A stretch of DNA of 64,000 bases from Escherichia coli. Lineage in GTDB: Bacteria; Pseudomonadota; Gammaproteobacteria; Enterobacterales; Enterobacteriaceae. Shown one piece after another: positions 45,338 to 64,000 of this stretch (position 1 is the first letter of the stretch; each line of letters begins with the position of its first letter). Made by a program: the position numbers and the translations under genes. Where the stretch lies: NCBI RefSeq assembly GCF_030013595.1, contig NZ_CP122768.1; one strand, 5' to 3'. Under the pieces are notes generated by a model. The model was not told the DNA's origin. It ran no database searches and saw only the letters and a list, made by a program, of their open reading frames with translations.

Positions 45338-45354
45338 AGTACGTCTCTTTGCGC

Positions 45355-45815: not shown

Positions 45816-46811
45816 ATGGCTTCATTAAAGGATGTCGCACGCCTGGCGGGAGTGTCGATGATGACAGTCTCCCGGGTGATGCATAATGCAGAATCTGTGC
45901 GTCCTGCAACGCGTAACCGCGTATTGCAGGCAATCCAGACCCTGAATTATGTTCCTGATCTTTCCGCCCGTAAGATGCGCGCTCAAGGACGTAAGCCGTC
46001 GACTCTCGCCGTGCTGGCGCAGGACACGGCCACCACTCCTTTCTCTGTTGATATTCTGCTTGCCATTGAGCAAACCGCCAGCGAGTTTGGCTGGAATAGT
46101 TTTTTAATCAATATTTTTTCTGAAGATGACGCTGCCCGCGCGGCACGTCAGCTGCTTGCCCACCGTCCGGATGGCATTATCTATACTACAATGGGGCTGC
46201 GACATATCACGCTGCCTGAGTCTCTGTATGGTGAAAATATTGTATTGGCGAACTGTGTGGCGGATGACCCAGCGTTACCCAGTTATATCCCTGATGATTA
46301 CACTGCACAATATGAATCAACACAGCATTTGCTCGCGGCGGGCTATCGTCAACCGTTATGCTTCTGGCTACCGGAAAGTGCGTTGGCAACAGGGTATCGT
46401 CGGCAGGGATTTGAGCAGGCCTGGCGTGATGCTGGACGAGATCTGGCTGAGGTGAAACAATTTCACATGGCAACAGGTGATGATCACTACACCGATCTCG
46501 CAAGTTTACTCAATGCCCACTTCAAATCGGGCAAACCAGATTTTGATGTTCTGATATGTGGTAACGATCGCGCAGCCTTTGTGGCTTATCAGGTTCTTTT
46601 GGCGAAGGGGGTACGTATCCCGAAGGATGTCGCCGTAATGGGCTTTGATAATCTGGTTGGCGTCGGGCATCTGTTTTTACCGCCGCTGACCACAATTCAG
46701 CTTCCACATGACATTATCGGGCGGGAAGCTGCATTGCATATTATTGAAGGTCGTGAAGGGGGAAGAGTGACGCGGATCCCTTGCCCGCTGTTGATCCGTT
46801 GTTCCACCTGA
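45816..46811 (+). CDS. cscR: LacI-family sucrose operon repressor
   Basis: ORF 45618-46811; start refined to ATG 45816 (MASLKDVARLAGVSMMTVSRV..., 331 aa); LacI-type HTH plus periplasmic-binding-protein fold. Confidence 0.85.
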   Translation: MASLKDVARLAGVSMMTVSRVMHNAESVRPATRNRVLQAIQTLNYVPDLSARKMRAQGRKPSTLAVLAQDTATTPFSVDILLAIEQTASEFGWNSFLINIFSEDDAARAARQLLAHRPDGIIYTTMGLRHITLPESLYGENIVLANCVADDPALPSYIPDDYTAQYESTQHLLAAGYRQPLCFWLPESALATGYRRQGFEQAWRDAGRDLAEVKQFHMATGDDHYTDLASLLNAHFKSGKPDFDVLICGNDRAAFVAYQVLLAKGVRIPKDVAVMGFDNLVGVGHLFLPPLTTIQLPHDIIGREAALHIIEGREGGRVTRIPCPLLIRCST

Positions 46812-46818
46812 TATTATG

Positions 46819-48252: not shown

Positions 48253-48286
48253 TTTAATCATCCTGGTTAAGCAAATTTGGTGAATT

Positions 48287-48298
48287 GTTAACGTTAAC
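48287..48298. promoter_or_regulatory. putative CscR operator (palindrome GTTAACGTTAAC), copy 1
   Basis: Perfect 12-bp palindrome in the divergent cscA/cscK promoter region. Confidence 0.4.
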
Positions 48299-48350
48299 TT
48301 TTATAAAAATAAAGTCCCTTACTTTCATAAATGCGATGAATATCACAAAT

Positions 48351-48362
48351 GTTAACGTTAAC
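48351..48362. promoter_or_regulatory. putative CscR operator (palindrome GTTAACGTTAAC), copy 2
   Basis: Identical 12-bp palindrome 52 bp from copy 1. Confidence 0.4.
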
Positions 48363-48467
48363 TATGACGTTTTGTGATCGAATATGCATGTTTTAGTAAA
48401 TCCATGACGATTTTGCGAAAAAGAGGTTTATCACTATGCGTAAGTCAGATGAATTTAAGGGAAAAAA

Positions 48468-49382
48468 ATGTCAGCCAAAGTATGGGTTTTAGGGGATGCG
48501 GTCGTAGATCTCTTGCCAGAATCAGACGGGCGGCTACTGCCTTGTCCTGGCGGCGCGCCAGCTAACGTTGCGGTGGGAATCGCCAGATTAGGCGGAACAA
48601 GTGGGTTTATAGGTCGGGTCGGTGATGATCCTTTTGGTGCGTTAATGCAAAGAACGCTGCTAACTGAGGGTGTCGATATCACGTATCTGAAGCAAGATGA
48701 ATGGCACCGGACATCCACGGTGCTTGTCGATCTGAATGATCAAGGAGAACGTTCATTTACGTTTATGGTCCGCCCCAGTGCCGATCTTTTTTTAGAGACG
48801 ACAGACTTGCCCTGCTGGCGACATGGCGAATGGTTACATCTCTGTTCAATTGCGTTGTCTGCCGAGCCTTCGCGTACCAGCGCATTTACTGCGATGACGG
48901 CGATCCGGCATGCCGGAGGTTTTGTCAGCTTCGATCCCAATATTCGTGAAGATCTATGGCAAGACGAGCATTTGCTCCGCTTGTGTTTGCGGCAGGCGCT
49001 ACAACTGGCGGATGTCGTCAAGCTCTCGGAAGAAGAATGGCGACTTATCAGTGGAAAAACACAGAACGATCGGGATATATGCGCGCTGGCAAAAGAGTAT
49101 GAGATCGCCATGCTGTTGGTGACTAAAGGTGCAGAAGGGGTGGTGGTCTGTTATCGAGGACAAGTTCACCATTTTGCTGGAATGTCTGTGAATTGTGTCG
49201 ATAGTACTGGGGCGGGAGATGCGTTCGTTGCCGGGTTACTCACAGGTCTGTCCTCTACGGGGTTATCTACAGATGAGAGAGAAATGCGACGAATTATTGA
49301 TCTTGCTCAACGTTGCGGAGCGCTTGCAGTAACGGCGAAAGGGGCGATGACAGCGCTGCCATGTCGACAAGAACTGGAATAG
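48468..49382 (+). CDS. cscK: fructokinase (PfkB/ribokinase family)
   Basis: 304-aa ORF with GAGDAF motif. Confidence 0.9.
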   Translation: MSAKVWVLGDAVVDLLPESDGRLLPCPGGAPANVAVGIARLGGTSGFIGRVGDDPFGALMQRTLLTEGVDITYLKQDEWHRTSTVLVDLNDQGERSFTFMVRPSADLFLETTDLPCWRHGEWLHLCSIALSAEPSRTSAFTAMTAIRHAGGFVSFDPNIREDLWQDEHLLRLCLRQALQLADVVKLSEEEWRLISGKTQNDRDICALAKEYEIAMLLVTKGAEGVVVCYRGQVHHFAGMSVNCVDSTGAGDAFVAGLLTGLSSTGLSTDEREMRRIIDLAQRCGALAVTAKGAMTALPCRQELE

Positions 49383-49453
49383 TGAGAATTAAACGGCGAA
49401 GTCGCTCTTATCTCTAAATAGGACGTGAATTTTTTAACGACAGGCAGGTAATT

Positions 49454-50701
49454 ATGGCACTGAATATTCCATTCAGAAATGCGTACTATCGTTTGGCATC
49501 CAGTTACTCATTTCTCTTTTTTATTTCCTGGTCGCTGTGGTGGTCGTTATACGCTATTTGGCTGAAAGGACATCTAGGATTAACAGGGACGGAATTAGGT
49601 ACACTTTATTCGGTCAACCAGTTTACCAGCATTCTATTTATGATGTTCTACGGCATCGTTCAGGATAAACTCGGTCTGAAGAAACCGCTCATCTGGTGTA
49701 TGAGTTTCATTCTGGTCTTGACCGGACCGTTTATGATTTACGTTTATGAACCGTTACTGCAAAGCAATTTTTCTGTAGGTCTAATTCTGGGGGCGCTCTT
49801 TTTTGGCCTGGGGTATCTGGCGGGATGCGGTTTGCTTGACAGCTTCACCGAAAAAATGGCGCGAAATTTTCATTTCGAATATGGAACAGCGCGCGCCTGG
49901 GGATCTTTTGGCTATGCTATTGGCGCGTTCTTTGCCGGTATATTTTTTAGTATCAGTCCCCATATCAACTTCTGGTTGGTCTCGCTATTTGGCGCTGTAT
50001 TTATGATGATCAACATGCGTTTTAAAGATAAGGATCACCAGTGCATAGCGGCGGATGCGGGAGGGGTAAAAAAAGAGGATTTTATCGCAGTTTTCAAGGA
50101 TCGAAACTTCTGGGTTTTCGTCATATTTATTGTGGGGACGTGGTCTTTCTATAACATTTTTGATCAACAACTCTTTCCTGTCTTTTATGCAGGTTTATTC
50201 GAATCACACGATGTAGGAACGCGCCTGTATGGTTATCTCAACTCATTCCAGGTGGTACTCGAAGCGCTGTGCATGGCGATTATTCCTTTCTTTGTGAATC
50301 GGGTAGGGCCAAAAAATGCATTACTTATCGGTGTTGTGATTATGGCGTTGCGTATCCTTTCCTGCGCGTTGTTCGTTAACCCCTGGATTATTTCATTAGT
50401 GAAGCTGTTACATGCCATTGAGGTTCCACTTTGTGTCATATCCGTCTTCAAATACAGCGTGGCAAACTTTGATAAGCGCCTGTCGTCGACGATCTTTCTG
50501 ATTGGTTTTCAAATTGCCAGTTCGCTTGGGATTGTGCTGCTTTCAACGCCGACTGGGATACTCTTTGACCACGCAGGCTACCAGACAGTTTTCTTCGCAA
50601 TTTCGGGTATTGTCTGCCTGATGTTGCTATTTGGCATTTTCTTCCTGAGTAAAAAACGCGAGCAAATAGTTATGGAAACGCCTGTACCTTCAGCAATATA
50701 G
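49454..50701 (+). CDS. cscB: sucrose:H+ symporter (MFS, LacY-like)
   Basis: 415-aa 12-TM ORF. Confidence 0.9.
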   Translation: MALNIPFRNAYYRLASSYSFLFFISWSLWWSLYAIWLKGHLGLTGTELGTLYSVNQFTSILFMMFYGIVQDKLGLKKPLIWCMSFILVLTGPFMIYVYEPLLQSNFSVGLILGALFFGLGYLAGCGLLDSFTEKMARNFHFEYGTARAWGSFGYAIGAFFAGIFFSISPHINFWLVSLFGAVFMMINMRFKDKDHQCIAADAGGVKKEDFIAVFKDRNFWVFVIFIVGTWSFYNIFDQQLFPVFYAGLFESHDVGTRLYGYLNSFQVVLEALCMAIIPFFVNRVGPKNALLIGVVIMALRILSCALFVNPWIISLVKLLHAIEVPLCVISVFKYSVANFDKRLSSTIFLIGFQIASSLGIVLLSTPTGILFDHAGYQTVFFAISGIVCLMLLFGIFFLSKKREQIVMETPVPSAI

Positions 50702-51143
50702 ACGTAAACTTTTTCCGGTTGTTGTCGATATCTCCATATCCCTCAACCGGAAAATAATAATACAAAAATGCTTAGCCCAACTAATAATCACCTAATCCAA
50801 ACGCCTCATTCATGTTCTGGTACAGTCGCTCAAATGTACTCCGGATACGCGGTTCGCTGATTTCCAGGACATTGTCGTCATTCAGCGACCTGTCCCGAGT
50901 ATCACGGGCCTGCGAATTCATCAAGGAATGCATTGCAGAGTGAAGTATCGAGTCACGCCATATTTCGCTATCAGGATTCTGTATGATGGTTACATCGCCC
51001 GGCCCAGGGCTGTTTAGTCATCAGCGCTTTCTGACAGTGCTGAGATTTCAACCTGTTGCAGTAAAAATGAGTAGATATAGGGCAAGTGTGCTGCCAAACC
51101 CATCTTTTACGGGGTGAAGGTAGATTTGGTTTGAAGGGTATCT

Positions 51144-51158
51144 GGTGTCCCCTGCAGA
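51144..51158. other. putative prophage att core (attR): 15-nt identity to the 3' end of tRNA-Arg argW
   Basis: Minus strand reads CTGCAGGGGACACCA, matching the argW 3' terminus as recalled, without the rest of the tRNA; lies about 70 bp from the torI-like gene. Confidence 0.45.
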
Positions 51159-51230
51159 CATCTACTTGAGGCGGCAGGGGATTGATTGGAATGGTGTTTT
51201 TTAGATGTGAAAAATATTTTACCCGCTATT

Positions 51231-51431
51231 TTACCCATTGGCGCGGCTTAAGAGCTTATTTTTGAATTCACAATGGTCACGATATAACCATCTTGCTCGC
51301 CCGTGGATAACTTTGGCTTTTGGCAGGTCGCCGGACTTAATCCGGTCATAGATGAAGGTTTTACCGAATCCAGTATCGGCCATGATGAATTTCAAATCAA
51401 CCAGTGAATCAGGCTGTAGTTCGTGTTGCAT
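51231..51431 (-). CDS. torI: AlpA/Xis-family excisionase (recombination directionality factor), TorI-like
   Basis: 66-aa ORF at the prophage edge next to the att core; size and position match KplE1 TorI; identity from recall. Confidence 0.6.
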   Translation of the reverse strand: MQHELQPDSLVDLKFIMADTGFGKTFIYDRIKSGDLPKAKVIHGRARWLYRDHCEFKNKLLSRANG

Positions 51432-51562
51432 GAGTGCTATCTCCGAATAGGGAATCGAACCTGCAAATCAGGCAATAAAAAACCGCCATCAGGCGGCTTG
51501 GTGTTCTTTCAGTTCTTCAATTCGAATATTGGTTACATTGTTTTAATATATGAATAAATAAA

Positions 51563-51775
51563 TTAGCTTTTTTCGTTGCCTTCGCGTTCTTTATTAATTT
51601 TAACAAACTCGTTTTTACCACGCTCTCCAAATGCGTCTTTAGAGTCGTTGTATCCGCAATCGCAGCACACATAATCACCAGACCATCCACGCATTGTTTT
51701 TTCTTTTGCAATATTTCCAGAACCGCATTTTGGACAAGACATATCACTACCTCCAAAGCATGAGTGAGATGACAA
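51563..51775 (-). CDS. small Cys-rich zinc-finger protein (lambda Ea8.5 position)
   Basis: 70-aa ORF with CPKCGSG...CCDCGYN zinc-ribbon-like motifs. Confidence 0.4.
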   Translation of the reverse strand: MSSHSCFGGSDMSCPKCGSGNIAKEKTMRGWSGDYVCCDCGYNDSKDAFGERGKNEFVKINKEREGNEKS

Positions 51776-51838
51776 CGTAACATTGATTGGAGATTAACAA
51801 TAGATTGCTGATGTAAAAGATATGTATAAGCTTCGCTT

Positions 51839-52393
51839 TCAAAGTGGAGGCTCTGGTAGCGGCATCCAGTGTGACGGCTCACATACCACCTCAACACCGT
51901 TCATGTAAAAGAATTGAAATAACCCTTTACCTTTGTGAAACCCTACCATCTGCTCTTTTGTGTCTGAACAATAAACCAAAACATCTTCTTCGTTTGGCAT
52001 CCACTCACTACAGCTTATCCAACCATCTGGAATTACCGGAGAGTTGCCCGACATCTCATTCAACTTGTAAGTCTGGCTTACAGGTTTGGCTTCCAGTTCT
52101 GCAATGCGCTTACCTCCATCCGCGATTACTCCCTCGTAATATTCACGCTGCTCGTTGAGTTTTGATTTTGCTTCCTCAAGCTCAACTCTCAGCTTCCCTA
52201 CCGTTAGCGCAATATCCTCGTTCTCCTGGTCACGGCGTTTGATGTATTGCTGGTTTCTTTCCCGTTCATCCAGCAGTTCCAGCACAATCGATGGTGTTAC
52301 CAATTCATGGAAAAGGTCTGCGTCAAATCCCCAGTCGTCATGCATTGCCTGCTCTGCCGCTTCACGCAGTGCCTGAGAGTTAATTTCGCTCAC
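51839..52393 (-). CDS. Ead/Ea22-like early protein (DUF551-type)
   Basis: 184-aa ORF at the Ea22 position of the lambda early-left operon. Confidence 0.55.
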   Translation of the reverse strand: MSEINSQALREAAEQAMHDDWGFDADLFHELVTPSIVLELLDERERNQQYIKRRDQENEDIALTVGKLRVELEEAKSKLNEQREYYEGVIADGGKRIAELEAKPVSQTYKLNEMSGNSPVIPDGWISCSEWMPNEEDVLVYCSDTKEQMVGFHKGKGLFQFFYMNGVEVVCEPSHWMPLPEPPL

Positions 52394-52611
52394 TTCGAAC
52401 CTCTCTGTTTACTGATAAGTTCCAGATCCTCCTGGCAACTTGCACAAGTCCGACAACCCTGAACGGCCAAGCGTCTTCGTTCATCTATCGGATCGCCACA
52501 CTCACAACAATGAGTGGCAGATATAGCCTGGTGGTTCAGGCGGCGCATTTTTATTGCTGTGTTGCGCTGTAATTCTTCAATTTCTGATGCTGAATCAATG
52601 ATGTCTGCCAT
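52390..52611 (-). CDS. TraR/DksA-family C4 zinc-finger protein
   Basis: 73-aa ORF with CxxC-17-CxxC motif (CCECGDPIDERRRLAVQGCRTCASC). Confidence 0.55.
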   Translation of the reverse strand: MADIIDSASEIEELQRNTAIKMRRLNHQAISATHCCECGDPIDERRRLAVQGCRTCASCQEDLELISKQRGSK

Positions 52612-52709
52612 CTTTCATTAATCCCTGAATTGTTGGTTAATACGCTTGAGGGTGAATGCGAATAATAAAAAAGGAGCCTGTAGCTCCATGATGATTTTGT
52701 TTTTCATGC

Positions 52710-52991
52710 TCACCGTTCCTTAAAGACGCCGTTTAACATGCCGATCGCCAGGCTTAAATGAGTCGGTGTGAATCCCATCAGCGTTACCGTTTCGCGGTGC
52801 TTCTTCAGTACGCTACGGCAAATGTCATCGACGTTTTTATCCGGAAACTGCTGTCTGGCTTTTTTGATTTCATAATTAGCCTGACGGGCAATACTGCGAA
52901 GGGCGTTTTCTTGCTGAGGTGTCATTGAACAAGTCCCATGTCGGCAAGCATAAGCACACAGAATATGAAGCCCGCTGCCAGAAAAATGCAT
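52710..52991 (-). CDS. hypothetical phage early protein
   Basis: 93-aa ORF, co-oriented in the early-left operon; start uncertain. Confidence 0.35.
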   Translation of the reverse strand: MHFSGSGLHILCAYACRHGTCSMTPQQENALRSIARQANYEIKKARQQFPDKNVDDICRSVLKKHRETVTLMGFTPTHLSLAIGMLNGVFKER

Positions 52992-53001
52992 TCAGTGGTT
53001 G

Positions 53002-53193
53002 TCATACCTGGTCTCTCTCATCTGCTTCTGCTTTCGCCACCATCATTTCCAGCTTTTGTGAAAGGGATGTGGCTAACGTATGAAATTCTTCGTCTGTTTC
53101 TACTGGTATTGGCACAAACCTGACTCCAATTTGAGCGAGGCTATGTGCCATCTCGATACTCGTTCTTAACTCAACGGGAGATGCTTTGTGCAT
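53002..53193 (-). CDS. hypothetical phage early protein (lambda orf63 position)
   Basis: 63-aa ORF. Confidence 0.35.
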   Translation of the reverse strand: MHKASPVELRTSIEMAHSLAQIGVRFVPIPVETDEEFHTLATSLSQKLEMMVAKAEADERDQV

Positions 53194-53354
53194 ACAGCCC
53201 CCCGTTTATTATTTATCTCCTCAGCCAGCCGCTGGGCTTTCAGTGGATTTTGGATAACAGAAAGGCCGGGAAATACCCAGCCTCGCTTTGTAACGGAGTA
53301 GACGAAAGTGATCGCGCCTACCCGGATATTATCGTGAGGATGCGTCATCGCCAT
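53166..53354 (-). CDS. hypothetical phage early protein (lambda orf60a position)
   Basis: 62-aa ORF overlapping exo stop. Confidence 0.3.
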
Positions 53355-54025
53355 TGCTCCCCAAATACAAAACCAATTTCAGCCAGTGCCTCGTCCATTT
53401 TTTCGATGAACTCCGGCACCATCTCGTCAAAACTCGCCATGTACTTTTCATCCCGCTCAACCACGACATAATGCAGTCCTTCACGCTTCATACGCGGGTC
53501 ATAGTTGGCAAAGTACCAGGCATCTTTTCGCGTCACCCACATGCTGTACTGCACCTGGGCCATGTAAGCCGACTTTATGGCCTCGAAACCACCGAGCCGG
53601 AACTTCATGAAATCCCGGGAGGTAAACGGGCATTTCAGCTCAAGGCCATTGCCGTCACTGCATAAACCATCGGGAGAGCAGGCGGTGCGCATACTTTCGT
53701 CGCGATAGATGATCGGGGATTCAGTAACATTCACGCCGGAAGTGAATTCAAACAGGGTTCTGGCGTCGTTCTCGTACTGTTTTCCCCAGGCCAGCGCCTT
53801 AGCATTAACTTCCGGAGCCACACCGGTGCAAACCTCAGCCAGCAGGGTGTGGAAGTAGGACATTTTCATGTCAGGCCACTTCTTTCCTGAGCGGGGCTTT
53901 GCTATCACGTTGTGAACTTCTGAAGCGGTGATGACGCCGAGCCGTAATTTGTGCCACGCATCATCCCCCTGTTCGACAGCTCTCACGTCGATCCCGGTAC
54001 GCTGCAGGATAATGTCCGGTGTCAT
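53345..54025 (-). CDS. exo: lambda-type 5'-3' exonuclease (Red-alpha)
   Basis: 226-aa ORF, YqaJ-type recombinase exonuclease; followed by bet and gam. Confidence 0.9.
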
Positions 54026-54807
54026 GCAGCCACCTTCTGTTCAGAGGCTTTCTGTTTCAGGAATCCAAGAGCTTTCACTGCTTCGGCCTGTGTCAGTTCT
54101 GACGATGCGCGAATGTCGCGGCGAAATATCTGGGAACAGAGCGGCAATAAGTCGTCATCCCATGTTTTATCCAGGGCGATCAGCAGAGTGTTAATCTCCT
54201 GCATGGTTTCATCGTTAACCGGAGTGATGTCGCGTTCCGGCTGGCGTTCTGCAGTGTGTGCAGTATTTTCGACAATGCGCTCGGCTTCATCCTTGTCATA
54301 GATACCAGCAAATCCGAAGGCCAGACGGGCACACTGAATCATGGCTTTATGCCGTAACATCCGTTTGGGATGCGACTGCCACGCCCCCGTGATTTCTCTG
54401 CCTTCGCGAGTTTTGAATGGTTCGCGGCGGCATTCATCCATCCATTCGGTAACGCAGATCGGATGATTACGGTCCTTGCGGTAAATCCGGCATGTACAGG
54501 ATTCATTGTCCTGCTCAAAGTCCATGCCATCAAACTGCTGGTTTTCATTGATGATGCGGGACCAGCCATCAACGCCCACCACCGGAACGATGCCGTTCTG
54601 CTTATCAGGGAAGGCGTAAATTTCTTTCGTCCACGGATTAAGGCCGTACTGGTTGGCGACGATCAACAATGCGATGAACTGCGCATCGCTGGCATCACCT
54701 TTAAATGCCGTCTGGCGAAGAGTGGTGATCAGTTCCTGTGGGTCGACAGAATCCATGCCGACACGTTCAGCCAGCTTCCCTGCCAGCGTTGCGAGTGCTG
54801 TACTCAT
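54022..54807 (-). CDS. bet: single-strand annealing protein Bet (Red-beta)
   Basis: 261-aa ORF; overlaps exo start as in lambda. Confidence 0.9.
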
Positions 54808-54812
54808 CCGTT

Positions 54813-55109
54813 TTATACCTCTGAATCAATATCAACCTGGTGGTGAGCAATGGTTTCAACCATGTACCGGATGTGTTCTGCCATGCGCTCCTGAAACTCA
54901 ACATCGTCATCAAACGCACGGGTAATGGCTTTTTTGCTGGCCCCGTGGCGTTGCAAATGATCGATGCATAGCGATTCAAACAGGTGCTGGGGCAGGCCTT
55001 TTTCCATGTCGTCTGCCAGTTCTGCCTCTTTCTCTTCACGAGCGATCTGCTGGTAGTGACGCGCCCAGCTCTGAGCCTCAAGACGATCCTGAATGTAATA
55101 AGCGTTCAT
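54813..55109 (-). CDS. gam: host-nuclease (RecBCD) inhibitor Gam (short form)
   Basis: 98-aa [24 protein letters not shown]... matching lambda GamS as recalled. Confidence 0.9.
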
Positions 55110-55184
55110 GGCTGAACTCCTGAAAATGGCTGTGAAAATAGCGCCCGCGAAATGCCAGGCTGATTAGGAAAACAGGAAAGGGGG

Positions 55185-55328
55185 TTAGTGAATGCTTTTG
55201 CTTGATCTCAGTTTCAGCATTAATATCCATTTTTTATAAGCGTCGACGGCTTCACGAAACATCTTTTCATCGCCAATAAAAGTGGCGATAGTGAATTTAG
55301 TCTGGATAGCCATAAGTGTTTGATCCAT
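55185..55328 (-). CDS. kil: host-killing protein Kil
   Basis: 47-aa [12 protein letters not shown]... within ORF 55185-55454; overlaps cIII by 32 nt as in lambda. Confidence 0.8.
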
Positions 55329-55461
55329 TTTTTGGGACTCCTGGCTGATTAAGTATGTCGATAAGGCGTTTCCATCCGTCACGTAATTTACGGGTGATTC
55401 GTTCAAGTAAAGATTCGGAAGGGCAGCCAGCAACAGGCCACCCTGCAATGGCATATTGCAT
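55297..55461 (-). CDS. cIII: cIII (FtsH protease inhibitor)
   Basis: Manual translation gives [54 protein letters not shown] (54 aa); below ORF-track cutoff. Confidence 0.85.
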   Translation of the reverse strand: MQYAIAGWPVAGCPSESLLERITRKLRDGWKRLIDILNQPGVPKNGSNTYGYPD

Positions 55462-55533
55462 GGTGTGCTCCTTATTTATACATAACGAAAAACGCCTCGA
55501 GTGAAGCGTTATTGGTATGCGGTAAAGCCGCGC

Positions 55534-55845
55534 TTAGGCGGCTGATGTTTCTTCTTTCAGGCTTTCGAGATATTTACGTGGGTCGTCGTAACATTGGCAT
55601 TCGCTGTACCAATCCACCCAGCGATCAGTAAGCCCCACCTCTGATAAATCTTCATCGGTAAGGCTCTCATCCCACATCTCAAGGCCGTTAGCATTGCAGT
55701 AATCAGGCTTGATGTTGTTGTCATACTGAAAGGCGTCATAATCAGCCAGTGCGTCCATCAGGCGAACACCCTCTTCAACACTTGCCACTTCTACAATGAA
55801 CGGCTTCATAGGTACTTGCGGGATATGCCAGACACGTAATTTCAT
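55534..55845 (-). CDS. hypothetical acidic protein (lambda ea10 position)
   Basis: 103-aa ORF, strongly acidic, Trp/Cys-containing. Confidence 0.5.
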   Translation of the reverse strand: MKLRVWHIPQVPMKPFIVEVASVEEGVRLMDALADYDAFQYDNNIKPDYCNANGLEMWDESLTDEDLSEVGLTDRWVDWYSECQCYDDPRKYLESLKEETSAA

Positions 55846-55989
55846 ATTTCCTCCGTCAAAAAAATGCCCTCACACTGGAGGGCAAAGAAGATTTCCAATA
55901 ATCAGAACAAGTCGGCTCCTGTTTAGTTACGAGCGACATTGCTCCGTGTATTCACTCGTTGGAATGAATACACAGTGCTTATTCGCAGC

Positions 55990-56316
55990 CTACATAATCA
56001 TTCCGGTTATTATTACCATTTCAATATCGCTATCTTTCATAATGATTGGAGTTGAGTTATCAACTTTACTTTTACTCCATTTTCCTGCATCAGTTTTTAC
56101 CGCTCCACAATAAGAAAGCCAATCATCATCACAATGTTCTGGATCACTAATTCTGACAAGAACACGTGATAGTGCTTTTTCGATACTTTCATCACAATTA
56201 GCATTTGTGTAATTGCCGTGAGACAATTTCAAATCGTTAACTTCATCTTCATTGGCATCAAAAATATAGATTTCAGTCGACTCTGGAACATTTTCATAAA
56301 CCATTAAAACTTTCAT
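55990..56316 (-). CDS. hypothetical protein, AT-rich moron-like gene
   Basis: ORF 55990-56397; likely start ATG 56316 (MKVLMVYENVPE...) after GGGG RBS; low GC relative to flanks. Confidence 0.45.
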   Translation of the reverse strand: MKVLMVYENVPESTEIYIFDANEDEVNDLKLSHGNYTNANCDESIEKALSRVLVRISDPEHCDDDWLSYCGAVKTDAGKWSKSKVDNSTPIIMKDSDIEMVIITGMIM

Positions 56317-56356
56317 TTTTACCCCATATTGTTTATGCCAAAAATAAAGGCCACCA

Positions 56357-56557
56357 TTAGGCAGCCTTGTTGTTCTGTTTACCAAGTTCTCTGGCAATCA
56401 TTGCCGTCGTTCGTATTGCCCATTTATCGACATATTTCCCATCTTCCATTACAGGAAACATTTCTTCAGGCTTAACCATGCATTCCGATTGCAGCTTGCA
56501 TCCATTGCATCGTTTGAATTGTCCACACCATTGATTTGTATCAATAGTCGTAGTCAT
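56357..56557 (-). CDS. ral: Ral-like small Cys-rich protein (restriction alleviation), tentative
   Basis: 66-aa ORF with CGQFKRCNGC motif at the ral position and size; identity from recall. Confidence 0.5.
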   Translation of the reverse strand: MTTTIDTNQWCGQFKRCNGCKLQSECMVKPEEMFPVMEDGKYVDKWAIRTTAMIARELGKQNNKAA

Positions 56558-56627
56558 ACGGATAGTCCTGGTATTGTTCCATCACATCCTGAGGATGCTC
56601 TTCGAACTCTTCAAATTCTTCTTCCAT
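56541..56627 (-). CDS. possible 28-aa acidic leader peptide (MEEEFEEFEEHPQDVMEQYQDYPYDYDY)
   Basis: Short ORF with strong GAGGTGA RBS 6 nt upstream of ATG; its stop overlaps the ral-like start. Confidence 0.25.
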   Translation of the reverse strand: MEEEFEEFEEHPQDVMEQYQDYPYDYDY

Positions 56628-56685
56628 ATCTCACCTCAAATAAGTGGTTTGCTGCCTAATTTCATTTTCTGGCGACCAACACAAG

Positions 56686-56958
56686 TCATCTTGCTGTCAG
56701 CTGTTTGGATTTCCTGTAGCCTGCCGCGTAAATGGCTACATTTGGAAGACAAGTTGAGCCTTCATATTTTCTGGTCAACGTTGTCAGTGTTATTACTTCT
56801 GCTCTCATTACTGGTTTGCGTTTGCATTGTAAGACCACTCGTGAAGGGGTTGGCCTGTGTAGCTTGTCAGAGCTGATCGCCTCCTGACTTTGCAGGTTTG
56901 CACGACGAGCTCTACGGCGAGAAGCTGCGGTGCCTTTAAATTCTGTTTTTCTGGACAT
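56686..56958 (-). CDS. N-like transcription antiterminator (P22 gene 24 type)
   Basis: ORF 56686-57030; start refined to ATG 56958 after GGGAGGA RBS; arginine-rich motif AASRRRARRANLQ; C-terminus ...IYAAGYRKSKQLTAR. Confidence 0.75.
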   Translation of the reverse strand: MSRKTEFKGTAASRRRARRANLQSQEAISSDKLHRPTPSRVVLQCKRKPVMRAEVITLTTLTRKYEGSTCLPNVAIYAAGYRKSKQLTAR

Positions 56959-57056
56959 AGATTCCTCCCGAATAAACTTTGGCGATGCAATCTCGAAGCT
57001 CCTCCTGAGACGGTTGCTTCGGCATTGCATCCCACAGCTTATATGGTTGGGTGATC

Positions 57057-57070
57057 TGGCTTTTCAGCCA
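57057..57070 (-). promoter_or_regulatory. putative nutL boxB hairpin
   Basis: Transcript-sense UGGCUGAAAAGCCA stem-loop between the putative pL and N start. Confidence 0.35.
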
Positions 57071-57148
57071 CGTAGTCGAGTGTTCGACGTTGTTTAAAGA
57101 GCCTGCCAGTCTGCTCCGTTTGGCTTACAGCGTCCTGCTGACGGTTAA

Positions 57149-57177
57149 ATAGTACGATATGTACTTTATTGGGTCAA
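57149..57177 (-). promoter_or_regulatory. putative pL promoter
   Basis: TTGACC -35 and TACTAT -10 with 17-nt spacer on minus strand upstream of N. Confidence 0.35.
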
Positions 57178-57397
57178 TACAATTTGTTCTAAAATGGGGT
57201 GATTTTTTATAACGCTTTGTATTTAATAGTGTTGTTTTTTAGCGTGGGTGTATCGCCTCGGCGATGTAAGGAGAGATCAGAATTGCGTGGTTTAGTGAGT
57301 TGTATCTATTTATTTTTCAATAAATACATTTGGTTATGTGTCTTTAGGTGGGGGCGTGAGGCAAAGAAAACCCGGCTCGGTGGCCGGGTTGATGGGA

Positions 57398-58255
57398 TTA
57401 TCGTTTATTTCTTTGATGTTTCTTTGCTGACTCAGCTTGAGTGTTTCCATACCTGCGTTTACCGCTATTGTTTTTTCCTCTAGGCTTGCCTTTTTTTCGA
57501 TCTTCCCACCAGTCAGGTGCCGGGTCTGGCTCAACATGTAAAGCATCGGCAAGTCCTGATATCAAGCTGTATGACTGAACTCCATCAATGTGCTCTGACA
57601 GTGATGGGGTAACATTCTGTCTTAGTGGATCAAGAATAAAATCAATACCTTTAATTCTGGCGTGTTTGGCGGCAGGCACAAAGTCTGAGTCCCCAGCAAC
57701 AAGGACAATTACATCAACAAGTTTTTCATAAGCTAAAGTCGTGATATCCATCCCTAGCTTGATATCAACTTGTTTTTGTTTGATGTCATAGTAAAAATCA
57801 TCATTTGTCAGTTCATCCCATTTTTTCGTTCCTTTCATCAGAGCATCAAGGGAGAATGTAGTTAGTTGCCATCGCTTATTATCAACAAGATTCCCTAATC
57901 TTAAGGCTGTTTTTCGAGTTTTTCTTAACTCTTCATGCAGCTCCGTTCTCAGAATATATGATTTTTCGAGTTTGAAATTCTTGCGACCAGGCGTCTTATT
58001 GCCAGGCTCAGGAAGTGGAAGGCGTGTTTGAATGTCGAGTGGTGGACAGTCATAGAAGTAAATTCTATAAAGCTCAAGCGGTTCCCTACGTTCTTGTGAT
58101 TGACGTTTTCCATTAAGATGGGAAAGAACCATTGACCATATTACTTTCATTATGCATTGCGCAGTCAGTTCATGCTCGGCGAAGTGTTTACGATGCGTAG
58201 CATGAACACGCTGCATGAAAAAACCCGCATCAATTAAAATTGCTGCTTTCTTCAT
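57398..58255 (-). CDS. NYN/LabA-like (PIN-fold) nuclease-domain protein with Lys/Arg-rich C-terminal tail; candidate prophage exclusion/defence protein in the rex position
   Basis: 285-aa ORF: N-terminal AILIDAGFF and central VLVAGDSDFVPAAKHARIKGIDF NYN-type motifs; basic tail; between cI and pL/N; AT-rich. Confidence 0.75.
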   Translation of the reverse strand: MKKAAILIDAGFFMQRVHATHRKHFAEHELTAQCIMKVIWSMVLSHLNGKRQSQERREPLELYRIYFYDCPPLDIQTRLPLPEPGNKTPGRKNFKLEKSYILRTELHEELRKTRKTALRLGNLVDNKRWQLTTFSLDALMKGTKKWDELTNDDFYYDIKQKQVDIKLGMDITTLAYEKLVDVIVLVAGDSDFVPAAKHARIKGIDFILDPLRQNVTPSLSEHIDGVQSYSLISGLADALHVEPDPAPDWWEDRKKGKPRGKNNSGKRRYGNTQAESAKKHQRNKR

Positions 58256-58382
58256 AAGAGTCCCAAAAAAATAGCCCAGAGCCGTTATGCAGATATTAAC
58301 AATTGTCTGCGAACGGGGCTGGGCTTGGTTTAATTAATCTATGCCAAGTTGACTGTGCCGTCAACATAAAACTTACTTCCTA

Positions 58383-59036
58383 TCACCCAAACGTCTCTTC
58401 AGGCCACTGACTAGCGATAACTTTCCCCACAACGGAACAACTCTCATTGCATGGGATCATTGGGTATTGTGGGTTTAGTGGCTGTAGAAACACCTGACCG
58501 CTATCCCTGATCAGTTTCTTGAAGGTAAACTCATCACCACCAAGTCTGGCTATACAGAAATCGCCTGGCTCAACAGCCTGCTCAGGGTCAACCAGAATTA
58601 ACATCCCGTCAGGAAAGCTGGGCTTGGATCCTGTTGGTGCGGTCATGGAATTACCTTCAACCTCAAGCCAGAATGCAGAGCCACTGGCTTTTTTGGTTGT
58701 GCTTACCAATCTCTCCGCATCGCCTTTGGTAAAGGTTCTGAGTTCTGGAGAGAACATCCCAGCCTGAACATGAGAAAATACAGGGTACTCATATTGTTTT
58801 TTAACTGGGGCCGATGAGTATTCGCCAACAGGTGAAAATGTCCCGTCGTGGTTGAATGATATGTTATCAATACCAAGGTATTTAAACACCACACCAATAT
58901 CACTAAGAGATGGATGACGAGATCCGCGCAACCAGTGTCCAATCCCACCCTGCGTCATACCTAGCTCTTCGGCTAACTTCTCTTGAGTTATGCCGAGCTC
59001 TTTCATTCTGGATCTAGCCAGTTCATACCATTTCAT
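58383..59036 (-). CDS. cI: cI-type prophage repressor (HTH plus S24 LexA-like peptidase domain)
   Basis: ORF 58383-59084; probable start ATG 59036 ([10 protein letters not shown]...) 7 nt after AAGGA; C-terminal GNSMTAP...KKL...PLNPQYPMI autocleavage domain. Confidence 0.85.
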
Positions 59037-59152
59037 TTTCATGTCCTTATTATTACGCTCTGTACTGGAACCATCAATGCACAATGTGTATTTTTGCTTG
59101 TATTTGGAAAGTACATATTGTATTTTTTATTCGAGGTTACTATGGAGGGCAT

Positions 59153-59368
59153 ATGAGCAACCTACGAAAATATCGAGAGTCACTGAATATCTCTCAAACA
59201 ACACTTGCTAAGGCAGTTGGATGCACACAGGGAGCTATCGGACATTGGGAATCTGGTCGTCGCTTCCCAGACCTTAAAACATGCCGTGCTCTTGTTGCGT
59301 GCCTAAATAAGTTAGGCGCAAAAGTAAGTCTTGATGACGTGTTCCCGCCGGAACACAAAGCCGCTTAA
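59153..59368 (+). CDS. cro: Cro-like HTH repressor
   Basis: ORF 59084-59368; start refined to ATG 59153 after GGAGGG; HTH QTTLAKAVGCTQGAIGHWE; divergent from cI. Confidence 0.7.
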   Translation: MSNLRKYRESLNISQTTLAKAVGCTQGAIGHWESGRRFPDLKTCRALVACLNKLGAKVSLDDVFPPEHKAA

Positions 59369-59509
59369 TAAGCGGAGCCGCTCTTTGTAACAACGGACAT
59401 TCGTCCTACGTCGCTGAAAAGCGAGTCCCAAGATATCTGACCAACTAAGGCCATATGCGTTTCCACGCATACCTTTCAACTAACTATTCACTATTGGAAA
59501 TCTTAAGAA

Positions 59510-59806
59510 ATGGAACGAACAAGTTACAGCAAACTATCACAGCGTGACGTTGATCGCGCAGAAACAGATTTACTCATCAACCTATCAACGCTTACCCAGC
59601 GCGGTCTGGCAAAGATGATTGGCTGTCATGAATCGAAGATAAGCAGAACGGACTGGAGATTTATTGCTTCGGTCTTGTGTGCTTTCGGAATGGCATCAGA
59701 CATCAGTCCGATTAGCAGGGCTTTTAAGTATGCGCTTGATGAAATCACAAAGAAAAAATCCCCGGCCGCCACCGAGGATTTTAAGCAAATTGATATGCAA
59801 TTCTGA
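59510..59806 (+). CDS. cII: CII-like transcriptional activator
   Basis: 98-aa ORF; C-terminus ...KKKSPAATEDFKQIDMQF resembles lambda CII ...KKRPAATERSEQIQMEF. Confidence 0.8.
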   Translation: MERTSYSKLSQRDVDRAETDLLINLSTLTQRGLAKMIGCHESKISRTDWRFIASVLCAFGMASDISPISRAFKYALDEITKKKSPAATEDFKQIDMQF

Positions 59807-59838
59807 GGGAATTACTGGATCAATCTACAGGGGTCATT

Positions 59839-60738
59839 ATGACAAATACAGCAAAAATACTCAACTTCTGCAGAGGTAACTTTGCCGAACAGGAGCGTAA
59901 TGTGGCAGATCTCGATGATGGTTACGCCAGACTATCAAATATGCTGCTTGAGGCTTATTCAGGCGCAGATCTGACCAAGCGACAGTTTAAAGTGCTGCTT
60001 GCCATTCTGCGTAAAACCTATGGGTGGAATAAACCAATGGACAGAATCACCGATTCTCAACTTAGCGAGATTACAAAGTTACCTGTCAAACGGTGCAATG
60101 AAGCCAAGTTAGAGCTCGTCAGAATGAATATTATCAAGCAGCAAGGCGGCATGTTTGGACCAAATAAAAACATCTCAGAATGGTGTATCCCTCAAAACGA
60201 GGGAAAATCCCCTAAAACGAGGGATAAAACATCCCTCAAATTGGGGGATTGCTATCCCTCAAAACAGGGGAACACAAAAGACACTAATACAAAAGAAAAA
60301 AGAAAAGATTATTCGTCAGAGAATTCTGGCGAATCCTCTGACCAGCCAGAAAACGATCTTTCTGTGGTTAAACCGGATGCTGCAATTCAGAGCGGCAGCA
60401 AGTGGGGAACAGCAGAAGACCTGACCGCCGCAGAGTGGATGTTTGACATGGTGAAGACCATCGCGCCATCAGCCAGAAAACCGAATTTTGCTGGGTGGGC
60501 TAACGATATCCGCCTGATGCGTGAACGTGACGGACGTAACCACCGCGATATGTGTGTGCTTTTCCGCTGGGCCTGCCAGGACAACTTCTGGTCCGGTAAC
60601 GTGCTGAGTCCGGCCAAACTCCGCGACAAGTGGACCCAGCTCGAAATCAACCGTAACAAGCAACAGGCAGGCGTGACAGCCAGCAAACCAAAACTCGACC
60701 TGACAAACACTGACTGGATTTACGGGGTGGATTTATGA
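59839..60738 (+). CDS. O: replication initiator O
   Basis: 299-aa ORF essentially identical to lambda O as recalled; contains ori iterons. Confidence 0.95.
   Translation: MTNTAKILNFCRGNFAEQERNVADLDDGYARLSNMLLEAYSGADLTKRQFKVLLAILRKTYGWNKPMDRITDSQLSEITKLPVKRCNEAKLELVRMNIIKQQGGMFGPNKNISEWCIPQNEGKSPKTRDKTSLKLGDCYPSKQGNTKDTNTKEKRKDYSSENSGESSDQPENDLSVVKPDAAIQSGSKWGTAEDLTAAEWMFDMVKTIAPSARKPNFAGWANDIRLMRERDGRNHRDMCVLFRWACQDNFWSGNVLSPAKLRDKWTQLEINRNKQQAGVTASKPKLDLTNTDWIYGVDL
60187..60270 (+). repeat. ori-lambda iterons (four approx. 18-bp repeats ATCCCTCAAAACGAGGGA-like) followed by AT-rich segment
   Basis: Directly visible repeats tccctcaaaacgaggga / tcccctaaaacgaggga / tccctcaaattggggga / tccctcaaaacagggg inside O. 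Confidence 0.7.
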
Positions 60739-61436
60739 AAAACATCGCCGCACAGATGGTTAACTTTGACCGTGAGCAGATGCGTCGGATCGCCAACAAC
60801 ATGCCGGAACAGTACGACGAAAAGCCGCAGGTACAACAGGTAGCGCAGATCATCAATGGTGTGTTCAGCCAGTTACTGGCAACTTTCCCGGCGAGCCAGG
60901 CTAACCGGGACCAGAACGAACTGAACGAAATCCGCCGCCAGTGGGTGCTGGCTTTCCGGGAAAACGGGATCACCACGATGGAACAGGTTAACGCAGGAAT
61001 GCGCGTAGCCCGTCGGCAGAATCGACCATTTCTGCCATCACCCGGGCAGTTTGTTGCATGGTGCCGGGAAGAAGCATCCGTTACCGCCGGACTGCCAAAC
61101 GTCAGCGAGCTGGTTGATATGGTTTACGAGTATTGCCGGAAGCGAGGCCTGTATCCGGATGCGGAGTCTTATCCGTGGAAATCAAACGCGCACTACTGGC
61201 TGGTTACCAACCTGTATCAGAACATGCGGGCCAATGCGCTTACTGATGCGGAATTACGCCGTAAGGCCGCAGATGAGCTTGTCCATATGACTGCGAGAAT
61301 TAACCGTGGTGAGGCGATCCCTGAACCAGTAAAACAACTTCCTGTCATGGGCGGTAGACCTCTAAATCGTGCACAGGCTCTGGCGAAGATCGCAGAAATC
61401 AAAGCTAAGTTCGGACTGAAAGGAGCAAGTGTATGA
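60735..61436 (+). CDS. P: replication protein P (DnaB helicase loader)
   Basis: 233-aa ORF; ATGA overlap with O stop. Confidence 0.95.
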   Translation: MKNIAAQMVNFDREQMRRIANNMPEQYDEKPQVQQVAQIINGVFSQLLATFPASQANRDQNELNEIRRQWVLAFRENGITTMEQVNAGMRVARRQNRPFLPSPGQFVAWCREEASVTAGLPNVSELVDMVYEYCRKRGLYPDAESYPWKSNAHYWLVTNLYQNMRANALTDAELRRKAADELVHMTARINRGEAIPEPVKQLPVMGGRPLNRAQALAKIAEIKAKFGLKGASV

Positions 61437-61723
61437 CGGGCAAAGAGGCAATTATTCATTACCTGGGGACGCATAATAGCTTCTGTGCGCCGGACGTTGC
61501 CGCGCTAACAGGCGCAACAGTAACCAGCATAAATCAGGCCGCGGCTAAAATGGCACGGGCAGGTCTTCTGGTTATCGAAGGTAAGGTCTGGCGAACGGTG
61601 TATTACCGGTTTGCTACCAGGGAAGAACGGGAAGGAAAGATGAGCACGAACCTGATTTTTAAGGAGTGTCGCCAGAGTGCCGCGATGAAACGGGTATTGG
61701 CGGTATATGGAGTTAAAAGATGA
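61433..61723 (+). CDS. ren: Ren (Rex exclusion protection protein)
   Basis: 96-aa ORF immediately after P with ATGA overlap. Confidence 0.85.
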   Translation: MTGKEAIIHYLGTHNSFCAPDVAALTGATVTSINQAAAKMARAGLLVIEGKVWRTVYYRFATREEREGKMSTNLIFKECRQSAAMKRVLAVYGVKR

Positions 61724-61749
61724 CCATCTACATTACTGAGCTAATAACA

Positions 61750-61780
61750 GGCCTGCTGGTAATCGCAGGCCTTTTTATTT
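61750..61780 (+). terminator. tR2-like rho-independent terminator
   Basis: caggcctgctggtaatcgcaggcc hairpin followed by TTTTTATTT between ren and ninB. Confidence 0.5.
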
Positions 61781-61796
61781 GGGGGAGAGGGAAGTC

Positions 61797-62237
61797 ATGA
61801 AAAAACTAACCTTTGAAATTCGATCTCCAGCACATCAGCAAAACGCTATTCACGCAGTACAGCAAATCCTTCCAGACCCAACCAAACCAATCGTAGTAAC
61901 CATTCAGGAGCGCAACCGCAGCTTAGACCAAAATCGGAAGCTTTGGGCTTGCCTTGGTGACGTTTCGCGTCAGGTTGAATGGCATGGTCGCTGGCTGGAT
62001 GCAGAAAGCTGGAAGTGTGTGTTTACCGCAGCATTAAAGCAGCAGGATGTTGTTCCTAACCTTGCCGGGAATGGCTTTGTGGTAATAGGCCAGTCAACCA
62101 GCAGGATGCGTGTAAACGAATTTGCGGAGCTATTAGAGCTTATACAGGCATTCGGTACAGAGCGTGGCGTTAAGTGGTCAGACGAAGCGAGACTGGCTCT
62201 GGAGTGGAAAGCGAGATGGGGAGATCGGGCTGCATGA
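61797..62237 (+). CDS. ninB: NinB recombination protein (Orf)
   Basis: ORF 61779-62237; start refined to ATG 61797 after GGGGGAGAGGG. Confidence 0.85.
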   Translation: MKKLTFEIRSPAHQQNAIHAVQQILPDPTKPIVVTIQERNRSLDQNRKLWACLGDVSRQVEWHGRWLDAESWKCVFTAALKQQDVVPNLAGNGFVVIGQSTSRMRVNEFAELLELIQAFGTERGVKWSDEARLALEWKARWGDRAA

Positions 62238-62761
62238 CTATCAAATCAAATACGCCAGCACACGACAAGGACTGCTGGCAAACGCCGCTTTGGCTTTTTG
62301 ATGCACTGGATATTGAGTTTGGATTCTGGCTGGATTCGGCAGCGAGCGACAAAAATGCTCTGTGTGCTCACTGGCTAACTGAGGCCGACGACGCGCTCAA
62401 TTCTGAGTGGGTAAGCCACGGTGCAATCTGGAATAACCCACCGTACAGCAATATCAGGCCGTGGGTGGAAAAAGCCGCTGAGCAGTGCATACAACAGCGA
62501 CAGACGGTAGTGATGCTTGTGCCAGAGGATATGTCAGTCGGATGGTTCAGCAAGGCTCTGGAGAGTGTCGACGAAGTTCGCATTATCACTGATGGACGGA
62601 TTAATTTTATCGAACCATCGACGGGGCTGGAGAAGAAGGGAAACAGCAAAGGCTCCATGCTGCTGATTTGGCGACCGTTCATCAGTCCTCGACGGATGTT
62701 TACTACCGTATCCAAAGCGGCATTGATAGCGATCGGGCAGGGCGTCAGGAGGGCGGCATGA
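62234..62761 (+). CDS. phage N6-adenine DNA methyltransferase (orphan)
   Basis: ORF 62174-62761; start ATG 62234 overlapping ninB stop; NPPY catalytic motif (IWNNPPYS). Confidence 0.8.
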
Positions 62762-62934
62762 GGCGACAGCGACGAAGTTTCACCGACATCATCTGCGAAA
62801 ACTGCAAATACCTTCCAACGAAACGCTCCAGAAATAAACGCAAGCCAATCCCAAAAGAATCTGACGTAAAAACCTTCAACTACACGGCTCACCTGTGGGA
62901 TATCCGGTGGCTAAGACATCGTGCGAGGAAATGA
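62758..62934 (+). CDS. ninE: NinE
   Basis: [27 protein letters not shown]... within ORF 62668-62934; ATGA overlap with methyltransferase stop. Confidence 0.75.
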
Positions 62935-62936
62935 CA

Positions 62937-63338
62937 ATGCTTTTAATTCAACCTGGATTTGGCCTTAGCATCAAAAAAGGACACATGTTTGGCGAGAAAG
63001 AGTCACAACGAAAAATGGTGTCTATCCGGTTGCCATTTATCAGTATTTATTGGCTAAACAGGGAGGCAACAAATTATTGGTATACATGCGCCAGAGCAGC
63101 ATTTAACGACCCTGACTGGTTTGTGAAAAACCACCATGCGGTTCGTCAGGCAAAGAGAAAGGCCAATACGACATACATGAAGGCGTATCGAAAAGCATGG
63201 AAAGAACACCGCGATCGATACCAGCAAGACATGGAAAAGCTTGAATCAGAAAACATGGAATTAAGACGAAAGCTTGGTGAAGCAAAACGAGACATTGATG
63301 CTTACAAGCGACTTTTTAATGGTGAAAGCCATGCTTAG
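62937..63338 (+). CDS. hypothetical nin-region protein with C-terminal coiled coil
   Basis: ORF 62895-63338; likely start ATG 62937 after GAGG; C-terminal QQDMEKLESENMELRRKLGEAKRDIDAYKRL heptad-like. Confidence 0.4.
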   Translation: MLLIQPGFGLSIKKGHMFGEKESQRKMVSIRLPFISIYWLNREATNYWYTCARAAFNDPDWFVKNHHAVRQAKRKANTTYMKAYRKAWKEHRDRYQQDMEKLESENMELRRKLGEAKRDIDAYKRLFNGESHA

Positions 63339-63507
63339 CCCATCCCAAACCCTTCAATACCAGAAAGAAAGCGTCGAGCGAGCTTTAACGTGCGCTAACT
63401 GCGGTCAGAAGCTGCATGTGCTTGAAGTTCATGTGTGTGAGCACTGCTGCGCAGAACTGATGAGCGATCCGAATAGCTCAATGTACGAGGAAGAAGACGA
63501 TGAATGA
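63331..63507 (+). CDS. ninF: NinF (Cys-rich)
   Basis: MLSPSQTLQYQKESVERALTCANCGQKLHVLEVHVCEHCCAELM... within ORF 63274-63507. Confidence 0.75.
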   Translation: MLSPSQTLQYQKESVERALTCANCGQKLHVLEVHVCEHCCAELMSDPNSSMYEEEDDE

Positions 63508-64000
63508 GTTAATAAATGGCAATGCCATCAAAATGACAAGCATTGAAATCGCTGAGTTGGTGGGTAAGCGTCATGACAATGTGAAACGTACCATCGAAAC
63601 GCTGGCTAAAAATGGTGTTATCCGGCTTCCTCAAATTGAGGTTTCCGAAAGAATCAATAACTTAGGGTTCAATGTTCAGTACGAGCATTACGTCTTCGAA
63701 GGCGAACAAGGTAAGCGAGATAGTATTGTTGTTGTTGCCCAGTTGTCGCCAGAGTTCACCGCTCGCCTTGTTGACCGCTGGCGAGAGCTTGAAGAAACTG
63801 CGGCTAATATCCCCAAAACGCTACCAGAAGCGTTGCGCCTTGCTGCTGATCTTGCTGAGCAGAAAATGCAACTGGAAAACCAGCTCGCAATTGCCGCACC
63901 TAAAGTTGAGTTTGCCGATCGTGTTGGCGAGGCCAGCGGAATTTTGATTGGAAACTTTGCAAAGGTTGTTGGAATTGGTCAAAACAAACTGTTTGCGTGG
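63500..64000 (+). CDS. Rha/Roi-like phage regulatory protein, 5' portion (runs off window end)
   Basis: ATG 63500 overlapping ninF stop; N-terminus MNELINGNAIKMTSIEIAELVGKRHDNVKRTIETL typical of the Phage_pRha family; open to 64000. Confidence 0.6.
   Translation, partial: MNELINGNAIKMTSIEIAELVGKRHDNVKRTIETLAKNGVIRLPQIEVSERINNLGFNVQYEHYVFEGEQGKRDSIVVVAQLSPEFTARLVDRWRELEETAANIPKTLPEALRLAADLAEQKMQLENQLAIAAPKVEFADRVGEASGILIGNFAKVVGIGQNKLFAW

Follow-up and report, generated by a model that had tools for sequence, protein, structure and literature searches.

A stretch of 64,000 nucleotides of Escherichia coli DNA (the window) ends inside an open reading frame, for which an earlier note had proposed a phage regulatory gene of the Roi or Rha type. 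The question raised by this locus is which gene is cut by the window end and how the expression of such a gene could be controlled. Judged from its sequence, the gene is roi, and the window holds the 5' two-thirds of an ordinary, already annotated regulatory gene of lambda-like phages. Taken together, the data very probably describe a truncated delayed-early roi of a lambdoid prophage, including a proposed complex of Roi and IHF on the gene itself. The features of the locus are collected in Table 1.

Table 1. Features of the roi locus in the window and dyads at the homologous centre of related genes.
Feature	Position	Strand	Basis or remark
tR2-like intrinsic terminator, 5' of the nin genes	61749..61772	+	Scan: 8-bp stem, 6 G-C pairs, T-run
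ninF, upstream neighbour	63298..63507	+	Pfam NinF, 46.8 bits; RefSeq ortholog annotation
roi translation start region	63487..63507	+	GAGGA at 63487-63491, 8 nt 5' of ATG; read from the sequence
roi CDS, codons 1-167 of expected 240	63500..64000	+	Cut by the window end; open frame and homology
Rha-type winged helix-turn-helix domain (aa 12-99)	63533..63796	+	Pfam Phage_pRha, PF09669
Hypervariable roi segment (nt 62-198, aa 22-63; recognition helix and wing)	63561..63697	+	HK620/E212 allele type
Candidate Roi operator, 25-bp dyad CGGCTTCCTCAAATTGAGGTTTCCG	63623..63647	.	Centred on nt 136 of roi
Predicted IHF-binding consensus core AATCAATAACTTA (WATCAANNNNTTR)	63652..63664	+	4 nt 3' of the dyad
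Start of KilAC/ANT domain (aa 126-167; domain ends near aa 228)	63875..64000	+	Pfam PF03374
Dyad in APSE-3			CCTCAA-A-TTGAGG
Dyad in Stx1_499			CAATTTCCACAGACTGTGGAAATTG, perfect (12/12)
Dyad in D6			CCTCCA-A-TGGAGG
Dyad in HK629			CCCCCA-A-TGGTGG
Dyad in Stx2_14040			CCCCCA-A-TGGGG
Dyad in HK022 and mEp506			CCTGCA-T-TGCAG
Dyad in 933W			CAACTT...AAGTTG
Dyad in three homologues, 46-60% aa identity (metagenomic and genomic contigs)			Falls exactly on the aligned codon; top-scoring dyad within the first 300 nt

The reading frame starts with the ATG at 63500 (ATG AAT GAG) and runs for 167 codons without a stop up to base 64000. The list of complete open reading frames contained only short ones at 63500-64000, of 31-91 aa, in other frames or on the minus strand. 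The start agrees with the CDS start given by RefSeq/GenBank in E. coli M9, E212, and HK620. It shares an overlap of 8 nt with the stop codon of ninF (TGA, 63505-63507), and the same overlap of ninF and roi is annotated in E. coli M9, E212, HK620, HK97, and HK629. Among phage records, E212 matched the 501 bases with 99.8% identity, and HK620 and HK633 with 98.8%; the HK620 ortholog carries the name roi ("DNA-binding protein Roi"). The 167 amino acids are exactly residues 1-167 of E212 Roi, with one synonymous difference in the DNA, at nt 423. HK022 Roi had 82% amino acid identity to the window protein, and the divergence was confined to residues 22-63. The peptide TSIEIAELVGKRHDNVKRTIETL, quoted earlier as the N-terminal motif, represents Roi residues 13-35 (63536-63604). 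The proposal of a Roi/Rha-like regulatory gene truncated by the window is thus borne out by a 167-codon open frame and by close identity to proteins named Roi at both the nucleotide (HK620) and the amino acid (HK022) level.

The window comprises a part of the E. coli chromosome with emrKY, dsdA, and the csc (sucrose) genes, after which a lambdoid prophage begins. In order, its genes are those of a TorI-like excisionase, exo, bet, gam, kil, cIII, and N, then the gene of a CI-like repressor (minus strand), cro, cII, O, P, and ren. Next comes the tR2-like terminator, and the HK620 annotation places tR2 at the equivalent site. The nin genes follow in the order ninB, a Dam-type methylase gene, ninE, a hypothetical gene of 133 aa, ninF, and roi. 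On the upstream side of roi the overlap with ninF was seen; the downstream side lies beyond the window, and the closest relatives have there, as expected, a DUF1364/HNH-like gene, rusA, ninH, and Q. Because these genes come after roi in the relatives, roi belongs to the middle of the nin region, and its earlier placement at the end of that region is true of the end of the window only. A scan of 61400-64000 for sigma-70-like promoters found none, including none for roi itself; roi is presumably a delayed-early gene transcribed from pR. An Rfam scan of 56000-64000 gave no match.

Several other features of the prophage were observed. The 133-aa hypothetical gene between ninE and ninF (62937-63338, plus strand) gave no Pfam match that passed the threshold; E212 and HK629 also have it, whereas it is missing from HK620, HK97, and HK022, where ninE abuts ninF. 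The left edge of the prophage lies directly after cscB (50701-51431), with the TorI-like excisionase gene at 51231-51431 on the minus strand. Neither an integrase ORF nor a tRNA gene was found in 44000-64000. A prophage devoid of integrase is the less likely reading; more probably, the integrase gene sits beyond the window, at the other extremity of the prophage, and such a layout, with excisionase and integrase at opposite ends, presumably recalls that of KplE1/CPS-53. Directly to the left of the CI-like repressor gene there is a 285-aa ORF (57398-58255, minus strand) with an NYN (PIN-like nuclease) domain (Pfam, 36.8 bits). In lambdoid phages this slot often holds exclusion or defence genes. 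The PADLOC search with this ORF gave weak matches only (HEC-09, 2e-4; NYN/LabA-like, 1.4e-3), and in a related prophage a gene of a Clp-fold serine protease takes its place. In the early-left region, the ORF at 51839-52393 (minus strand) represents an Ead/Ea22-like domain fused to DUF551 (Pfam, 100.7 and 63.8 bits, respectively).

Two Pfam domains were recognized in the window fragment of Roi. Phage_pRha matched residues 12-99 with 37.8 bits (gathering threshold 29.9, E 3e-9), and ANT/KilAC (PF03374) matched residues 126-167 with 37.7 bits (threshold 25.3), covering profile positions 1-43 of 108; matches of this strength are not to be expected by chance. In the full-length E212 Roi, the scores were 36.7 bits for pRha, again above 29.9, and 115 bits for KilAC (aa 126-228). 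An architecture of an N-terminal HTH and a C-terminal KilAC domain is thus visible on the fragment and seen with its full KilAC domain in E212. Full-length relatives have 240 aa and consist of a weak Rha-type winged HTH, a long helix, and a strong KilAC/ANT domain. This confirms the fusion to an antirepressor- or KilA-type domain that the earlier note had considered. The same note placed the full architecture beyond the window, which is correct for the completion of KilAC but not for its start at residue 126, already inside.

The relationship of Roi to Rha, to judge by the profile scores, is real but marginal. On PF09669, phi80 Rha scored 107 bits and the Roi alleles 25-38 bits, with those of HK022, 933W, and HK629 (25-29 bits) below the threshold of 29.9. 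The cut-off of the NCBIfam subfamily model TIGR02681 (phage_pRha) was not reached (18.7 bits vs. 45.95), and BLASTP of Roi against phi80 Rha gave no whole-domain alignment, only a 28-residue HTH stretch with 46% identity. We call the link marginal because of these low scores, the three sub-threshold alleles, the unreached TIGR02681, and the short alignment. The claim that the N-terminus matches the Rha family can be kept in so far as the fragment and the full-length E212 protein both match pRha and the quoted motif is the very stretch aligned with phi80 Rha.

The family itself is very large: at E ≤ 1e-3 it has 7300 cluster representatives, and proteins of 225-250 aa with both domains are numerous among them. 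An AlphaFold model, calculated with an alignment of 64 sequences (mean pLDDT 85, pTM 0.47), has an N-terminal helix-turn-helix with a beta-hairpin wing, followed by two helices, a long helix (approximately aa 108-144), and a C-terminal domain of helices and a beta-hairpin. Among solved structures, none was related to Roi by sequence; fold searches gave weak matches only, mostly to winged-helix, MerR, or MarR DNA-binding domains. The PADLOC search with Roi returned no defence family at E ≤ 0.01.

Alignment of nine roi alleles revealed a mosaic. In nt 1-61 the other alleles were 95-100% identical to the window. In nt 62-198 the identity to other allele types dropped to 50-68%, and four types were distinguished. 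Two types were found in nt 301-400, which encode the linker helix, with 65-67% identity of the window to the HK629, PA11, 933W, and Stx1 alleles. The remaining segments were 86-97% identical to the window. The variable segment of the window allele was found, with at least 80% coverage, in 555 of 5426 complete E. coli genomes (about 10%); the gene is therefore already known. A megablast search with 62900-64000 detected the gene block ninE-hypothetical-ninF-KilAC in 1823 of the same 5426 genomes. Roi-like genes were also noticed in Stx1_499 and Stx2_14040, with 64-67% amino acid identity in the N-terminal domain, each followed by another Ant-type or regulatory gene. Their 5' neighbours are repressor-proximal early genes (a hypothetical gene in Stx1_499 and cro in Stx2_14040), so the Roi family is not restricted to the nin region.

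HK022 Roi reportedly binds within its own gene near an IHF site, and IHF is said to stabilise this binding. A candidate Roi site and a predicted IHF site are both present inside the window roi, as sequence features only (Table 1). The consensus WATCAANNNNTTR has one perfect match in the whole window, and it lies inside roi; by chance about 4 matches are expected in the window and about 0.03 per 500 bases. The sole match to the consensus in 10.7 kb of HK022 is located at the same offset (+152) inside roi, and in E212 the match is likewise single and at the same offset. Overall, 7 of 12 alleles carry the consensus at the homologous place. Its perfect form is missing in 933W, Stx1_499, and APSE-3, as well as in the distant homologues P0130 and P0147.

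The 25-bp element CGGCTTCCTCAAATTGAGGTTTCCG is the top-scoring dyad in roi, with 9 of 12 arm pairs and a perfect inner palindrome, CCTCAA-A-TTGAGG (63629-63641). A single 9/12 dyad somewhere in the gene is reached by about 40% of codon shuffles and is unremarkable alone, and short palindromes are common in roi genes (10-14 per gene at 6-nt arms). For these reasons, we rely on no single palindrome, and the argument for an operator is made by positional conservation and covariation, not by the score of one dyad. At the homologous centre, a dyad was present in all 12 divergent alleles examined, with differing sequences, and at least 8 of 12 pairs were formed there in 11 of the 12, compared to 0.34% of other positions. 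Covariation is visible in the DNA between the third base of the Pro45 codon, which is synonymous, and the second base of codon 48 (T:A, A:T, and C:G). Moreover, two independent pairs, window/APSE-3 and HK629/Stx2_14040, each agree in the recognition helix as well as in the inner palindrome. From this, we infer that a protein dimer binds the dyad, Roi itself being the simplest candidate.

Two further observations concern palindromes in roi. A perfect 13-bp palindrome, ATGGCA-T-TGCCAT, is present at 63516-63528, in the near-invariant first 61 nt of the gene; HK022 and HK629 have it too, and 933W carries an altered form. In the Stx1a-converting phage Stx1_9793, codon 45 of roi is an in-frame TAA produced by a C-to-T change within the dyad (CCTTAA for CCTCAA), which disrupts the ORF and the palindrome together.

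We propose the following mode of action. Transcripts from pR would reach roi once N allows the tR2-like terminator to be read through, and translation of roi would be coupled to that of ninF. A Roi dimer would bind to the dyad in its own coding sequence, aided by IHF 4 nt downstream, and the Roi-IHF complex would limit the expression or activity of Roi. When IHF is absent, uncontrolled Roi would block lytic growth; an effect on transcription toward Q may also be possible. For HK022 Roi, a block of lytic growth was reportedly seen when IHF was missing, and the mutants that grew on IHF-deficient hosts are said to be single-residue changes in Roi. An extension of this scheme to the whole clade is tentative, and we would put its chances at somewhat below even: an operator may lie within the codons after the recognition helix throughout the Roi clade, usually with an IHF site adjacent, so that helix and operator would form one cassette of about 140 bp. 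This reading covers homologues with as little as 46% amino acid identity, in hosts that range from E. coli to Hamiltonella, a symbiont of aphids.

The proposed binding of Roi to its own gene has to be weighed against other readings of the protein and of the dyad. One is that Roi is a true antirepressor: like P1 Ant, it would bind and inactivate a CI-type repressor, in this case through the KilAC domain, and that repressor could be its own or belong to another prophage in the same cell. Current names agree with this: the RefSeq product is "phage antirepressor KilAC domain-containing protein", and Roi matches phrog_63 of PHROGs ("anti-repressor Ant") at 1e-99; these names, however, were transferred from the domain and not from experiment. 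At the DNA level, the part of roi for the C-terminal half matches P1 kilA and P7 ant1. In the P1-like phage D6, a Roi-like gene (84% amino acid identity over aa 12-99; positions 471-1178 of the D6 stretch examined) is located directly 3' of icd, a slot which in P1 we take to be the position of ant1/ant2, and this placement suggests by analogy that Roi-type proteins can serve as an immI antirepressor. A CI-like repressor of 233 aa is encoded by the prophage in the window (58383-59084), but within the pR operon roi comes late, after a terminator, and it lacks a promoter-like site of its own; Roi would therefore be made only after the resident repressor had already been lost. The experimental work cited on Roi concerns only growth inhibition in IHF mutants, and the link to IHF is left unexplained by antirepression. 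The study of AriS, furthermore, calls the exact function of these domains still unclear (PMC9043618). We consider an antirepressor role of the window Roi unlikely. The same study offers another possibility, namely that Roi is a dual regulator of the AriS type, with the N-terminal domain acting on phage genes and KilAC dampening the host SOS response (RecA), which would tune the induction of multiple prophages. The ANT/KilAC domain of Listeria phages suffices on its own to block SOS induction, and AriS-like proteins have alternative N-terminal domains, AntA/B, Bro-N, or pRha (PMC9043618). The combination of pRha and KilAC is the architecture of Roi, in which both Pfam domains were found; the activity, however, is documented solely for Firmicutes proteins that are very distant from Roi, and it explains neither the IHF dependence nor the intragenic dyad. 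This role appears to be just as improbable as antirepression.

The dyad could also be something other than a Roi operator, namely a hairpin in the mRNA or a site for a different protein, with the IHF consensus being a by-product of coding for I-N-N-L-G. The IHF core does overlap conserved residues (INNLG or INDLG), and protein constraint could keep it; however, Leu is encoded by TTA in every allele that keeps the core. RNAfold pairs CCUC with GAGG, but the RNA fold of the dyad region was no better than that of shuffled sequence (z = -0.26), which leaves the hairpin unsupported. The symmetry extends to the two innermost pairs, complementary in 9 of 9 alleles, a property that a hairpin loop would not need and could not use. 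The sequence of the dyad tracks the recognition helix of Roi itself, which also speaks against a different protein. All in all, a non-operator origin of the dyad is quite unlikely, and binding of Roi to its own gene is the reading we prefer.

For gene discovery, the locus carries little weight: roi has its name and annotation in HK022, HK97, HK620, and 933W as well as in hundreds of prophages, Stx and others. To the known gene, the family-wide intragenic dyad predicted here is a modest addition. The principle of an intragenic operator was reportedly published for HK022; the family-wide conservation of the dyad and its covariation may be unpublished. Literature searches on Roi function yielded nothing further. 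If the clade-wide reading is true, the part of the protein that reads DNA and the DNA it reads would be inherited and exchanged together as one cassette, a compact autoregulatory module hidden in coding sequence. The dyad and the IHF element also offer a concrete and cheap experimental handle on the control of Roi and the part of IHF in it. In Shiga-toxin phages, Roi-type genes are located between the replication genes and Q, and the authors of one paper speculate that disruption of roi alters toxin output (PMC4587872).

The closest known counterparts are the roi genes of the P22-like phages (Lederbergvirus) HK620, E212, and HK633 and of many E. coli prophages, which represent the same gene and allele (98.8-99.8% nucleotide identity over the 501 bases). 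The start and the overlap with ninF in HK620 and E212 are as in the window, and nothing of substance differs, except that the window copy ends at codon 167; the 133-aa hypothetical gene between ninE and ninF is common to the window and E212, whereas HK620 lacks it. The experimentally studied Roi of HK022 (Clerget & Boccard 1996) occupies the same slot after ninF and has 241 aa vs. 240. Residues 1-21 are identical to those in the window and only 3 differences occur in residues 64-167; the IHF consensus has the same offset and the dyad the same centre. In contrast, residues 22-63 differ (57% nucleotide identity in the segment), and the dyad is CCTGCA-T-TGCAG in HK022 vs. CCTCAA-A-TTGAGG in the window. 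Since both the recognition helix with its wing and the dyad are different, the DNA specificities of the two proteins are probably different as well. With phi80 Rha, Roi shares the HTH signature TS..(I/V)A...GKRH.(N/D)V.R.I..L, and the literature and annotation connect both with an inhibition of phage growth when the host is deficient in IHF. Unlike Roi, phi80 Rha has no KilAC domain, and its gene is located after the lysis genes, outside the nin region. The C-terminal KilAC/ANT domain is common to Roi, Ant1 of P1 and P7, KilA, and Listeria AriS, whereas the latter proteins have N-terminal Bro-N, KilA-N, or AntA/B domains and differ from Roi in control and genomic position. Antirepression and SOS inhibition are the activities reported for Ant1, KilA, and AriS; for Roi, they are suggested by analogy, through the domain it shares with these proteins.
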